Positions 25,652 to 28,677 of a stretch of 64,000 nucleotides of DNA are shown piece by piece. Each line of letters starts with the position of its first letter. Position 1 is the first letter of the stretch. This stretch comes from Berkelbacteria bacterium GW2011_GWE1_39_12 (GTDB lineage Bacteria; Patescibacteriota; UBA1384; UBA12157): positions 396,613-460,612 of the forward strand of contig CP011213.1 in the NCBI GenBank assembly GCA_001029735.1. Direction: 5' to 3'. Both the position numbers and the translations under genes were made by a program. The notes below the pieces were generated by a model. It was given only the letters and a program-made list of their open reading frames with translations, had not been told where the DNA came from and made no database searches.

Positions 25652-25717
25652 GTCATTCCGGACTTGATCCGGAATCTATTCTAGATCCTGAATCCTGCAA
25701 TGGCCGGTTCAGGATGA
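25652..25717. repeat. palindromic element family B (GTCATTCCGGA...TCCGGAATCTAT...TTCAGGATGAC)
   Basis: A 66-bp element in the atpD-atpC intergenic region. Confidence 0.6.
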
Positions 25718-25728
25718 CATTGTAAATG

Positions 25729-27096
25729 TCATTTAACGTCTTCGATTGCGCCCTTCATGTAGAAAGCTTGTTCTGATTTATCGTCATGTTTTCCATCAAG
25801 AATTTCTTGAAAACCTTTGATTGTATCTTTCAATGGAACATATACTCCCGGAATGCCGCTAAAGACTTCTGCAACGTGGAATGGTTGGGAAAGAAACTTC
25901 TGGATTTTGCGTGCGCGAGCGACCAAAATTTTATCTTCTTCAGCCAGTTCTTCTACGCCTAAGATAGCGATAATGTCTTGCAAATCTTTGTAGCGCTGTA
26001 AAACTCGTTGCACTTCACGGGCAACTTTGTAATGGTCTTCGCCGACAATACGAGGGTCTAGAATGTTTGAAGTTGAGTCTAAAGGATCAACGGCCGGGTA
26101 GATACCAAGTTCGGAAAGTGCACGGCTTAAAACAATCGTTGAATCCAGATGGCCGAAAGTCGTGGCAGGGGCAGGATCGGTAAGATCGTCGGCTGGCACA
26201 TAAATAGCTTGAACGGAAGTAATCGAACCGGTTTTAGTTGAGGTAATTCTTTCTTGCATGGCACCCATTTCTTCTGCAAGAGTCGGCTGATAGCCAACGG
26301 CGGAAGGCATACGGCCAAGTAGGGCTGATACTTCAGAGCCCGCTTGAGTAAAACGGAAAATGTTATCGACAAAAAATAGCATGTCTTTACCTTGATCGCG
26401 GAAATATTCGGCAAGTGTCAAGCCGGTTAAACCGATACGCATTCTGGCACCTGGTGGTTCGTTCATCTGGCCGAAAACCATAGCGGTTTTATCTAAGACA
26501 CCGGAATCTCCCATTTCATGATAAAGATCATTACCTTCACGAGTCCTTTCACCGACACCGGCGAAAACAGAGTAGCCGCCATGTTCAGCGGCAATATTTC
26601 TGATCAGCTCGGTAATTAAAACAGTTTTTCCTACACCGGCGCCGCCGAAAAGACCAATTTTTCCACCTTTGATAAACGGAGCGATCAAGTCGATAACCTT
26701 AATACCGGTTTCAAAGATTTCGGTTTTGGTTTCGAGTTCTTCCAATTTTGGAGCGGCACGGTGAATAGGATATTTCTTGGCGGTTTTGAGTTCTTCTTTA
26801 CCGTCGATGGCGTTGCCGGTCACATTCATCATGCGGCCTAAAACTTCTTCGCCAACCGGTACAGAAATCTTGTCACCGGTGTCGACGACATCAGTTCCTC
26901 TTTGCAAGCCATCAGTTGAGCCCATAGAAACACAGCGAACTGTGTCAGAGCTCAAATGAAGCTGAACTTCTAAAGTCAGCTTGCCTCCGCCAGCTGGCGG
27001 ATTCACTTCTAAGGCATTTAAAATTTCTGGTAATTTTTCTTTAAATTCGACATCCACTACTGGGCCGATAACCTGGGCAATTTTTCCTGTATTCAT
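25729..27096 (-). CDS. atpD: F0F1 ATP synthase subunit beta
   Basis: Walker [12 protein letters not shown] and a highly conserved beta subunit sequence. The likely start is MNTGKIAQ. Confidence 0.95.
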
Positions 27097-27097
27097 T

Positions 27098-28006
27098 TTA
27101 AGATGTCCTTCCTGCATTAACCGCGGCGGAAATTTCGGCCAACTCCTGAGTAATACTTCCTTGGCGAATGCTGTTATATGTTAATTCTAAATCTTCAATT
27201 AAATCGTCGGCGGCATCTGTTGCGTTCTTCATAGCCATCATTCTGGCGGATTGTTCCGAGGCGATCGATTCCAAAATCATTTGGTAAAACTGGGTTTCAA
27301 TAATTCTCGGCACAATATAGTCAATTACTTCTTGACAAGATGGTTCAAACTTGAAATTTACTTCGTCATTGCGAGGAGCCGAAGGAGACGCGGCAATCTT
27401 ATCATTGTTAGATTGCTTCGCTTCGCTCGCAATGACATCGTTATTAAACGGAATTAATTGTTTCAATTCTGTCTTCTGTTTAATGGTTGATTGAAATTCT
27501 GTGTAGCAAACGGCGACTTCTTTATAAATATTATTGGTAAAATCAGTTCTGGCTTGGGTGATAATCGGAGCGACGTCGTACTCTTTGGCGTTGATTGGAA
27601 AATCTGTATAAGCACCAATTACGTTTTTTCCCAGAGCGGAAAGTAGTTTCTGGCCTTTCTTACCAATGGCAATAATATCTGTCTCCGGATTTGCTTTGAT
27701 ATATTCCAAGGCTTTGCGAATCACTGAAGTGTTATAAGACCCGCACAAACCTTTATCTGATGTCACAACGATCAAAAGATTCTTTTCTTTCGCCTCATTG
27801 TTAGATAATAAAATATGATTACAGCTTTCATCTCTCTGTAAATTACACAAAACTTCATATGAAGCGGTCGCATAATCACGGTTTTTAACGGCCGTGTCTT
27901 GCGATTTTTTCATCTTGGAAGCGGCGACCATTTCCATCGCCTTTGTAATCTTGGCGGTGGAACCAATCGCCTTAATTCTAATTCGTATTTCCTTGGTGTT
28001 AGGCAT
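27098..28006 (-). CDS. atpG: F0F1 ATP synthase subunit gamma (contains an in-frame palindromic element)
   Basis: The [32 protein letters not shown] start and the C-terminal helix are conserved. Element insertion at 27365-27434. Confidence 0.85.
27365..27434 (+). repeat. palindromic element family A, full copy, inside atpG and translated in frame
   Basis: gtcattgcgaggagccgaaggagacgcggcaatcttatcattgttagattgcttcgcttcgctcgcaatgac. It encodes [25 protein letters not shown] in the gamma subunit. Confidence 0.75.
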
Positions 28007-28035
28007 TTGTATCTTTCTGTAATTATAACTCTTTT

Positions 28036-28103
28036 GTCTTTCCGGACCGGTTGGTAAACAGGATCCGGAATCTATCATATGGATCCTGAATCATGTTCAG
28101 GAC
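28036..28103. repeat. palindromic element family B copy, between a duplicated atpG 5' end and the real atpG start
   Basis: gtctttccggaccggttggtaaacaggatccggaatctatcatatggatcctgaatcatgttcaggac. A second MPNTKEI-coding segment lies at 28098-28118 (minus). Confidence 0.55.
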
Positions 28104-28140
28104 TTCGATTTCTTTTGTATTTGGCATTGATTTTCTTGGT

Positions 28141-28209
28141 GTCATCCCGAGCTTGCCGAGGGATCTAGATTCGAGATTCCTCCACTCGCTATTGCTCGGT
28201 CGGAATGAC
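28141..28209. repeat. palindromic element (GTCATCCCGAG...CGGAATGAC)
   Basis: A 69-bp element with terminal inverted repeats in the atpA-atpG intergenic region. Confidence 0.55.
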
Positions 28210-28281
28210 ATTTACTCTTGACTACTTGGTTGACTTGTGATAACATTTATTCGAATTTGGATATCAAGCAGGAGGAAGAAA

Positions 28282-28539
28282 ATGATAGTTGTTCTGAATA
28301 TTGTGAAGTATCTTTCGTTCTTGATCACAGGGCTTTGTGCAATAGCGGGCGTAATGTTTATTGCAACTGCGCCACTCACTCTTGGTGTGTCAGTTCATAT
28401 AGCTAACATTGCCAAGGCCATTTGCATTATCTTTGTCTCTTCGCTGGCTCTGGCTTTCCTCTCAAGCAATCTGATTGACTGGTTACAGAGAAGATATCGG
28501 ATGAACAACGGCCAGATTCAAATTATGGTTCAACGCTAG
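28282..28539 (+). CDS. hypothetical small membrane protein embedded antisense within the atp operon
   Basis: An 85-aa ORF with two predicted TM helices and RBS aggaggaagaaaATG. It is flanked by palindromic elements. Confidence 0.3.
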   Translation: MIVVLNIVKYLSFLITGLCAIAGVMFIATAPLTLGVSVHIANIAKAICIIFVSSLALAFLSSNLIDWLQRRYRMNNGQIQIMVQR

Positions 28540-28597
28540 GATTCATTAGCGCTTGAAGTTTCTACTTCCGGCGCTTTTTTAAATTGCCAAAACTTTT

Positions 28598-28674
28598 GTC
28601 ATTCCGGAAAGAAAGGGTTTCTTATCCGGAATCTATTGGATCCCGGATACTGTTTGCTAACCGGTCCGGGATGA
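28598..28674. repeat. palindromic element family B copy
   Basis: gtcattccggaaagaaagggtttcttatccggaatctattggatcccggatactgtttgctaaccggtccgggatgac. Confidence 0.6.
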
Positions 28675-28677
28675 CAG

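Follow-up and report, generated by a model that had tools for sequence, protein, structure and literature searches.

What are the palindromic repeats in the ATP synthase operon of Candidatus Berkelbacteria, and how did one spacer of this operon come to hold a second atpG start and an ORF on the opposite strand? The host is an uncultured groundwater member of the CPR/Patescibacteria with a reduced genome of roughly 0.9 Mb. In the 64-kb stretch of DNA analysed here (the window), the F1Fo ATP synthase operon occupies 7.4 kb of the minus strand, where Pfam identifies atpB (31792-32610), atpE (31531-31761), atpF (31000-31491), atpH (30322-30819), atpA (alpha subunit, 28678-30207), atpD (beta subunit, 25729-27117) and atpC (epsilon subunit, PF02823/PF00401). 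The gamma-subunit gene, atpG (27098-28006), starts at ATG 28006, where the PF00231 match opens at that methionine and alignment with relatives agrees. According to the ORF list and Pfam, every atp ORF is intact without removal of any element. For atpC, the longest ORF (147 aa) begins at ATG 25656, which is the ATGAC terminus of a repeat, just as an earlier note on this DNA had said of the annotated start. Pfam homology opens only at residue 9 of that ORF, so ATG 25642 (MKLFDF...) is more likely the real start, giving a predicted gene of 25213-25642. ATGAC/GTCAT termini are thus a source of false start codons, as in atpC, and of spurious ORFs, which gene callers should discount.

The earlier note had proposed colonisation of the atp intergenic regions by a second palindromic family (B), with elements at 25652, 28036 and 28598 and a related one at 28141. 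The proposal is supported: three of the elements were recovered by an exact core, and all four by a covariance model. There are exactly three copies of the family-B core, TCCGGAATCTAT, in the 64-kb window (25668, 28064 and 28625), against an expectation of ~0.008 for an exact 12-mer on both strands. The family-B terminus, TGTCATTCCGGA, was found 11 times with two or fewer mismatches (4.5 expected), a count reached in 0 of 100 shuffles. With filters off, the covariance model scored 25652-25718 at 72 bits and 28598-28675 at 59 bits, both of which were in its training alignment, and 28036-28103 at 47 bits (46.6) and 28141-28209 at 31 bits (E = 6e-5), both of which were excluded from it; beyond these four elements, all matches in the window had E > 0.07.

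Each element is an inverted doublet of a hairpin unit, GTC-AT(stem)-loop-(stem)AT-C. Across 26 B copies the GTC and the C are invariant, 99% of the proposed pairs are formed and three pairs show compensatory double changes; folding z-scores of B elements range from -3 to -5.6. Covariation in the hairpins suits a role at the RNA level and one at the DNA level equally. The three B doublets, all read on the plus strand, are intergenic. B1 (25651..25719) is complete, fills the atpD-atpC spacer and is predicted to form a pair of hairpins with GUCA/UGAC at their base (-28 kcal/mol, z = -4.3). B2 (28035..28103) stops 28 nt short of the atpG start on its upstream side and has a 3-nt deletion in its right terminus, which reads TTCAGGAC for TTCAGGATGAC; a B2-like unit lies at the corresponding site upstream of atpG in the related contig L212. 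B3 (28597..28676), also complete, lies directly against the stop codon of atpA. In its right half it repeats the left half of B2 in inverted orientation, 17-nt loop included (28035-28072 against 28639-28676, 38 nt, 84% complementary). The fourth element (28141..28209) is a B-related hybrid doublet.

These doublets belong to a larger superfamily. Termini of the form GTCATYSCGR number 15 in the window, against 0.58 expected, and about 12 superfamily repeats of 56-80 nt are present in the 64 kb, seven of them in the 7.4-kb atp operon (binomial p about 1e-4, a figure that ignores local duplication). A looser hairpin-unit definition of our own gave 8 matches against 6.4 in shuffles; it was too permissive and was not used for counts. 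The other main form is the family-A doublet (GTCATTGCGAG...CTCGCAATGAC), of which a 72-nt copy (27365..27436) lies in frame within atpG, adding 24 residues, if translated, in a loop that is variable among relatives. Relatives with AtpG of 282-284 aa lack the insert, different elements occupy the same loop in other lineages, and AtpG of L212 and L210 carries B-like copies in frame. Elsewhere in the window, family-A copies lie in frame in a class-I aminoacyl-tRNA synthetase gene (75 nt, plus a short form) and in tsaD (a 73-nt motif within the open frame); about 4 of the 12 window elements are in-frame genic copies. The atpF-atpH spacer holds a family-A doublet (30831..30903), the counterpart of elements that bracket two cassettes in the closest relative, L205, and a half element (30955-30981).

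Outside the window, roughly 45 of 119 pattern matches in metagenome contigs were genuine B, giving 24 distinct elements once duplicates were removed. Near-identical 56-nt copies came from many environments, and B was present in seven viral contigs and in cultured Sphingopyxis (intergenic) and Sulfurovum (inside a CDS). Every relative examined has some palindromic element in its atp spacers; at the sites occupied here there are different elements or none, and lineages that have diverged by only about 20% already differ in which elements they have, where these lie and how they are oriented. The repeats are numerous, structured, spread across phyla and variably placed in close relatives. A literature search returned nothing relevant on palindromic elements or MITEs in CPR, nor on the consensus strings.

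The atpA-atpG spacer (28007-28677) is 671 nt long, in agreement with the earlier estimate of about 670 bp. In relatives the two genes overlap by 35 nt (L209) or are separated by 9 nt (the P0006 contig), 74 nt (L205) or 130 nt (L206/L208). With a range of -35 to 130 nt among relatives, the expansion is lineage-specific and recent. The second atpG start that had been noted upstream of the real one, separated from it by an element, is present on the minus strand at 28127..28104 as a 24-nt sequence match (ATGCCAAATACAAAAGAAATCGAA, encoding MPNTKEI), 121 nt start-to-start from ATG 28006 with B2 in between. It differs from the resident start at five positions, all third codon positions, and by one 1-nt deletion; the chance of five out of five differences falling at third positions is about 0.001, from C(7,5)/C(21,5). 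It matches the atpG start of L205 at 19 of 21 positions and the resident start at 16 of 21. Judged by its sequence, the MPNTKEI duplicate is the relic of a diverged atpG allele. Because its codons match those of a relative and its differences are purely synonymous, it was probably a working start region until recently, and the resemblance to the L205 start codons suggests a recombination scar. Sliding identity between the window and L205 along atpA and atpG showed no clear step that would mark a recombination boundary. In a donor lineage, atpG would be expected to start ATGCCAAATACAAAAGAAAT. A target-site or sequencing duplication was rejected as the origin of this copy. We also rejected programmed translational bypass or splicing between the copies: a start codon is present in the downstream copy itself, and the upstream frame meets a stop after B2.

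The remainder of the expanded spacer, as read from its sequence, is a self-contained antisense mini-gene (predicted promoter, Shine-Dalgarno sequence, ORF and terminator) that is bracketed by repeats and accompanied by the atpG relic. The ORF (28282..28539, plus strand) is the 85-aa two-TM frame with a good RBS that had been described on the opposite strand: AGGAGG lies 6 nt upstream (28270-28275), hydropathy is high over residues 1-65 and two helices are predicted. It appears to be an orphan, with no Pfam or PADLOC family, and conservation elsewhere was not found, the only match being to itself among 5.8e9 proteins and 1.84e9 representatives. A second match, to a 4450-aa repetitive protein over 38 short stretches, was set aside as compositional. 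Upstream lies a promoter module, TTACTCTTGACT...(17 nt)...TAACAT (28212..28246, plus strand; TTGACT/TAACAT; 9/12 with TG in a promoter scan). Downstream, a hairpin followed by U6 (28548..28581, plus strand; -15.1 kcal/mol) resembles an intrinsic terminator and has no U-run in the atp direction. The sequence of the terminator module is AGCGCTTGAAGTTT.

Both modules recur in the atpF-atpH spacer of L205, where they surround two different orphan ORFs in an element-ORF-element-ORF-element array with one ORF orientation and uniform unit lengths of 430-460 nt; the 70-aa ORF of that array is likewise an orphan. The hybrid doublet at 28141-28209, which forms the promoter-side boundary of the cassette here, matches in position the A-type elements that precede the L205 cassettes. 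The 64-kb window contains no second cassette copy, its own atpF-atpH spacer has a single element at the site of the L205 cassettes, and the viral contigs lack the cassette terminator.

The closest known repeats are in Neisseria, where NTS/dRS3 and "Ssn-related motif" (SRM) repeats are bound and cut as ssDNA by small single-domain GIY-YIG nucleases (PMC11893778). One of these, SsnA, targets NTS/SRM (Nat Commun 2025;16:2388, PMC11893778), and the nuclease does not interact with RNA (PMC11893778). An SRM unit consists of GTC(A/T)(T/C) directly 5' of an imperfect palindromic hairpin, with C directly 3' (PMC11893778). Both units of B1, B2 and B3 have this form, with predicted hairpins. The published SRM pattern, HGTCWYN(0-2)YYVSBRHN(0-5)WNVSBRGN(0-2)RNCYNB, found nothing on either strand of the window (0.27 expected from shuffles); by hand alignment the B units depart from it at one or two 3'-arm positions, and so they lie outside the operational definition of that family. 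The window also has no Ssn-like (cd10448-type) GIY-YIG gene. A weak GIY-YIG tblastn match at 19526-19714 proved to be a PD40 beta-propeller protein. In another CPR atp operon (L004), a 98-aa PF01541-only protein is encoded between atpG and atpD with a doublet on either side, and L109 has a single-domain GIY-YIG gene with a B-like doublet and a single unit close to its upstream side. Of 33 contigs bearing B, 2-3 had a gene of this kind; of 86 contigs with chance matches, none did (Fisher p about 0.02-0.08, on few contigs). A PDB sequence search with the L004 protein gave nothing meaningful.

On this evidence, a repeat superfamily with NTS/SRM architecture has probably colonised the atp operon, B being one widespread subfamily of it. 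The repeats would be selfish or near-neutral elements acting at the DNA level rather than atp-specific regulators, surviving at sites that tolerate them: spacers, the ends of genes and, in frame, permissive loops of proteins. They would also provide recombination junctions. The whole 640-nt block of the spacer would be an import from a related lineage that arrived either as one unit, with the inverted B2 and B3 halves as its ends, or through recombination resolved illegitimately at B2. No splicing would be needed: atpG would be translated from its own ATG at 28006, and transcription of the atp genes would have to run on through the cassette or begin anew beyond it. If this is correct, the NTS/SRM-Ssn system occurs in the Candidate Phyla Radiation too, as doublets that escape the published motif, and present counts of NTS/SRM-type repeats underestimate their spread.

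A more active role is conceivable, although we consider it rather unlikely. The repeat doublets may bracket and move small, self-contained expression cassettes, each made up of a conserved promoter, a 70-85-aa orphan ORF and a conserved terminator, and so act as a shuttle for mini-genes, with Ssn-type single-strand nicking or doublet-to-doublet recombination as its possible driving force. Orphan genes would then be dropped antisense into essential-operon spacers of CPR, carrying fragments of neighbours such as the atpG relic along with them.

The earlier note held that such insertions must either be spliced out at the RNA level or supply promoters or terminators, and may modulate subunit stoichiometry. 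The spacer does have a predicted promoter and terminator, but they belong to the antisense mini-gene and not to the atp genes, and the "must" fails: intergenic copies need no removal, the atpG copy is in frame, and Rfam revealed no intron or ribozyme. At gathering scores over the window it returned only a tRNA-Ser and chance-level matches; at E up to 5 over 25.0-31.2 kb there was no intron, ribozyme or other RNA family beyond chance, and ARAGORN found nothing in the atp region. The hairpins might instead be selected RNA-level regulators that set subunit ratios as stabilisers, processing sites or translation modulators, like E. coli REP/BIME. Stable RNA folds with covarying stems would suit that role, as would the concentration of elements in the operon, the presence of a palindromic element in the atp spacers of every relative examined and the end of B1 9 nt before the probable atpC start. 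Nevertheless, we judge it improbable. The elements vary in type, position and orientation over so short a divergence, the same ones turn up in unrelated surroundings, in unrelated phyla and within coding sequences, and they match no Rfam family; the protein known to partner the most similar repeats works on ssDNA, not RNA (PMC11893778). An effect on stoichiometry, in particular, is weakened because close relatives have different elements, or none, in the same spacers.

Non-autonomous transposons of MITE or REPIN type, moved in trans by a DDE, HUH/RAYT or IS200/IS605 TnpA enzyme and unrelated to Ssn, would account for the terminal inverted repeats (TGTCAT...ATGACA), the REPIN-like inverted-doublet layout and the near-identical 56-nt copies in many environments. 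None of the 24 distinct B copies has a target-site duplication at its flanks; position -1 is T in 23 of them and position +1 is A or G, bases that we read as an extension of the repeat. The inverted repeats expected of a MITE are present, but the missing duplication argues against a DDE-type element, whereas HUH-type single-strand transposition leaves none. The REPIN comparison is similarly divided: the inverted two-unit doublet is there, but the termini are GTCAT rather than the GTAG/CTAC signature of REP, and GTAG/CTAC with a RAYT was not seen at the loci inspected. No transposase was noticed adjoining those loci, whereas doublet-flanked GIY-YIG genes were. On balance, a transposon origin of this kind seems quite unlikely.

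The one-orientation array of 430-460-nt units in L205, and the single element at the corresponding atpF-atpH site of the window, could also be taken for attC-like sites of an integron-like system with the antisense ORF as a gene cassette. This is very improbable, since the termini lack, by inspection, the attC core sites RYYYAAC/GTTRRRY, each cassette brings a promoter and terminator of its own, the elements are found as lone copies and as in-frame copies within genes as well, and no integrase was noticed on inspection of the loci. Finally, misassembly is a common consequence of repeats, and three assemblies end 175-195 nt past B3, with contig breaks at 28851 and 28872, but an artefactual origin of the long spacer and duplicated start can be dismissed, because five independent assemblies from different pipelines and samples (NCBI DODL01000011, two ENA ANAN16 scaffolds, a MEGAHIT contig and a JGI contig) are 100% identical over 25.6-28.85 kb, and neither MPNTKEI copy, given their 5 differences in 21 positions, is a copy error of the other.

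Among known systems, NTS/SRM comes closest to the repeats of this window. Both have (C/T)GTCAT, a hairpin running from ATTCC to GGAAT, and then C with an oriented tail (ATCYRG vs ATCTAT); in both, stems are conserved and loops vary, and the repeats are numerous, clustered and cross-phylum. The doublets that flank small GIY-YIG genes in L004 and L109 recall the NTS-ssnA-NTS layout. The stems here, however, are TCCGGA, CCTGAA and TTGC, not TCCCGCG, and the units are closely paired in inverted doublets of 56-80 nt. Roughly one in three window copies lies in frame in an essential gene, compared with 2% genic for NTS in N. meningitidis, and the host belongs to the CPR, a group unmentioned in PMC11893778.

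REP/BIME/REPIN sequences, which can stabilise mRNA or serve as recombination sites, are also made of hairpins, each with a short motif conserved at its 5' end, that pair as inverted doublets, mostly outside genes and without target duplication. They differ in their motif (GTAG, against GTCAT here) and in their associated enzyme: no Y1 transposase was noticed, and the linked gene in related contigs encodes a GIY-YIG nuclease.

Rickettsia palindromic elements (RPE), which Ogata and colleagues reportedly described in 2000, are about 100-150 nt long and occur both between genes and in frame in proteins. The repeats described here are likewise small palindromes found between genes and in frame at permissive surface sites, in this case of AtpG, a class-I aminoacyl-tRNA synthetase and TsaD; in-frame insertion into intact genes is the behaviour of the family-A copies, whereas B1-B3 are intergenic. 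RPE are longer and have different sequences, and the likeness is drawn from behaviour. Repeats are thus tolerated in the ATP synthase operon and in essential proteins of a reduced genome of ~0.9 Mb, much as Rickettsia tolerates palindromic elements.

Neisseria intergenic mosaic elements and "minimal mobile elements" are variable genes between conserved flanks that are swapped by transformation. The cargo in the Berkelbacteria operon differs from theirs in being an orphan-ORF mini-gene with a conserved predicted promoter and terminator, placed antisense in an essential operon. The two systems are alike in having repeat-bounded variable cargo between housekeeping genes that differs in close lineages, and the atpG relic fits exchange by recombination. 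Together, the cassette and the relic may provide a concrete, datable case of repeats serving as junctions for gene-scale exchange among related uncultured lineages.

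The minus strand carries the atp operon of this population, Candidatus Berkelbacteria (CPR) from groundwater of the Rifle aquifer; its gene order is atpB-E-F-H-A-G-D-C, and all its reading frames are intact. The region is 100% identical in five independent assemblies, the UBA assembly differing only where it has a scaffold gap, near 22.4 kb. The family-B hairpin doublets that an earlier note had placed in the operon are all present: B1 (25651-25719) lies between atpD and atpC, whereas B2 (28035-28103), B3 (28597-28676) and a related element (28141-28209) occupy the atpA-atpG spacer. 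Searched with a covariance model trained on 26 B copies, the 64 kb yields these four places and no others with E below 0.07; one weak match on both strands (34448-34500, E 0.3-0.8) may represent a hairpin element that is degenerate or of another kind. The annotated atpC start overlaps an element terminus, as claimed previously, because such termini provide spurious ATGs. Two 12-nt stretches form a perfect inverted match (GTAAATGTCATT / AATGACATTTAC), one in the atpD stop-codon region beside B1 (25722-25733) and one at the junction of the 28141 element with the antisense promoter described below (28204-28215). The match may be left over from a further element end that overlaps the atpD stop. 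Type-IV-secretion/conjugation-like genes (PrgI, TraC-like, TraG/VirB4 P-loop ATPase) follow atpC immediately downstream, at 21131-24484, and a 70%-identical relative, P0006, has the same neighborhood.

The canonical B element in a metagenome scan, tGTCATTCCGGActtgATCCGGAATCTATataGATCCTGAAtcaagTTCAGGATGACa (56-59 nt), consists of two inverted copies of a single unit made up of GTC, a hairpin with stem AT...AT, and a final C. The GTC before and the C after the palindrome are invariant, and the stems persist even where loops have grown to 40 nt or more. In the second hairpin the distal stem covaries (CCTGAA/TTCAGG, CCCGCA/TGCGGG, CCCAAA/TTTGGG, CCCGGA/TCCGGG); 99% of proposed pairs form, double changes occur at three pairs, and none of 500 shuffles reached the covariation score. 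The invariance of the first hairpin is a product of the search pattern, which demanded that hairpin. Family A (GTCATTGCGAG...CTCGCAATGAC), the second family in the window, follows the same plan. Termini of the GTCATYSCGR type occur 15 times versus 0.58 expected, and seven of the ca. 12 full or half elements in 64 kb fall inside the 7.4-kb atp operon. B copies are mostly intergenic, and one of the six B reading frames is open. No target-site duplication flanks 24 distinct B copies, and Rfam has no family for any of the elements.

The stretch from the 28141 element to B3 holds a full antisense transcription unit, hereafter the cassette. Its promoter (TTGACT, 17 nt, TAACAT, with an upstream TG) is followed by a Shine-Dalgarno site (AGGAGG) 6 nt before the ATG of an 85-residue hydrophobic ORF, antisense to atp at 28282-28539, and by a terminator (a -15 kcal/mol hairpin), which has a trailing U6 in the antisense direction only. 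The ORF, reported in the earlier note together with its ribosome-binding site, is NCBI protein DD449_04270 and occurs on contigs as long as 915 kb. On the atp strand, no convincing sigma-70-type promoter was found in the spacer; CPR promoters are poorly known. Two tandem units of the same build, also antisense to atp and each bracketed by A-type elements, lie at 170-1140 of L205, in the atpF-atpH spacer of this close relative with ca. 80% nucleotide identity; in that spacer the window has a single A element, versus element-cassette-element-cassette-element in L205. The promoter (TTACTCTTGACT...) and terminator (AGCGCTTGAAGTTTAACTTCCGGCGCTTTTTT) modules are 85-94% identical between the two, whereas the ORFs are unrelated: one L205 ORF (74 aa, hydrophobic) matches the window ORF only in its first four codons (MIVV), and the other is 70 aa and soluble. 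A search for conservation of the 85-aa ORF returned only itself among 5.8e9 proteins and 1.84e9 representatives, and no homologue of the 70-aa ORF was found. The length of these ORFs, the Shine-Dalgarno site of each, and the way they fill the promoter-terminator interval make chance openness unlikely; thus we take them as real but fast-turnover genes. The outermost half of B2 is a 38-nt inverted copy of that of B3, and the two share an unusual 17-nt loop; the 640-nt block thus resembles a bounded unit that was inserted into a ca. 30-nt spacer. The spacer is a recent insertion with its own antisense promoter and terminator, and of all the findings this cassette system most merits further study. 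Three independent assemblies end at 28851 or 28872, 175-195 nt inside atpA past B3, and the population may have a junction here that varies among strains or arose by recombination.

The spacer also contains the second MPNTKEI-coding atpG 5' end described earlier, a 24-nt relic (28104-28127, minus strand) with its ATG at 28127. The relic (ATGCCAAATACAAAAGAAATCGAA) and the resident start (ATGCCTAACACCAAGGAAATACGAA) differ at five of 21 bases, each in the third position of its codon, and by a 1-nt deletion; with five identical assemblies, these differences exclude a sequencing or assembly duplication. Because in-place drift of a dead copy should also hit first and second positions, the pattern says that both copies were apparently working atpG starts until recently. 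We therefore infer that the relic is probably a piece of another lineage's atpG, which would have arrived with the cassette block or been left by recombination ending at B2. It matches the L205 atpG start (ATGCCCAATACAAAAGAAATT) at 19 of 21 bases, versus 16 of 21 for the resident copy, which has codon choices in common with the more distant L212, where a B2-like unit lies just upstream of atpG. No step in identity to L205 marks the other recombination boundary. The single open frame of B2 continues that of the relic up to a stop in the 28-nt linker, and the ORF that the relic initiates (at most 62 codons) is spurious.

Close relatives, found via AtpG homologues, show that the expansion is real: atpA and atpG overlap in L209 and are 9 nt apart in P0006. 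The atpA-atpG, atpG-atpD and atpD-atpC spacers contain A-type or hybrid elements in L206, L208 and L210, but in L205 they are filled by a different AT-rich palindromic family that also encodes the L205 AtpA C-terminal tail. Copies of this third, long palindromic family lie at 3247-3372, 4300-4456 and 5822-5901 in L205, at 5718-5871 in L209, and in the window atpH-atpA spacer (30208-30321), where 30226-30314 gives a weak microRNA-precursor-like Rfam match. Elements are also translated. An in-frame 72-nt A element (27365-27436) adds 24 aa to an AtpG loop that holds a different A-like element in another frame in L205, B-like elements giving TTVQDD in L212 and L210, and no insert in five relatives. 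Further in-frame A doublets occur in a class-I aminoacyl-tRNA synthetase (two inserts, 45479-45553 and 45929-45967) and in tsaD (47977-48049). Rickettsia palindromic elements likewise sit in frame within essential protein genes; here the genome is CPR. The repeats are genuine, structured and widespread; their positions vary, and some are translated. Their in-frame copies and the differing elements among relatives argue for tolerated selfish DNA rather than atp-specific regulators. They may still influence mRNA folding or stability secondarily. The earlier note had held that the insertions must be spliced out or supply promoters or terminators; colonization and spacer expansion are real and the spacer does hold an antisense promoter and terminator, but splicing is unsupported, the atp frames being intact.

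We propose that the repeats are DNA-level elements of the kind represented by the Neisseria Transformation Sequence (NTS) and other Ssn-related motifs (SRMs); their partner would be an Ssn-type nuclease with its gene in another part of the genome. Repeat spread and recombination would have moved the cassette and relic into the operon, and atp transcription would read through the cassette or restart before atpG. SRMs are hairpin repeats bound and cut, as single-stranded DNA only, by small single-domain GIY-YIG nucleases (SsnA, cd10448); the NTS (CGTCATTCCCGCGMAVGCGGGAATCYRG) includes the classical dRS3 repeat (PMC11893778). The three bases before the palindrome govern SsnA cleavage, and the C after it is the most important base for binding (PMC11893778). 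The B unit shares this architecture, and its GTC and C match the key NTS positions; however, the window contains no match to the published degenerate SRM pattern, so we class the elements as a variant of SRM-like build rather than as proven family members. No Ssn-type GIY-YIG gene lies in the 64-kb window. Single-domain GIY-YIG genes occur on 2-3 of 33 B-bearing metagenome contigs versus none of 86 contigs with chance pattern matches, and such a gene in L109 has a B-like doublet plus a single unit directly upstream. B-like elements also occur in cultured members of other phyla, between genes in Sphingopyxis indica and within a 4Fe-4S protein gene in Sulfurovum mangrovi. An ssn gene typically has its repeats on either side, like an insertion sequence (PMC11893778). 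In L004, another CPR genome, a 98-aa PF01541-only protein is encoded between atpG and atpD (7003-7496) with a hairpin doublet on each side, which reproduces the NTS-ssnA-NTS layout inside an atp operon.
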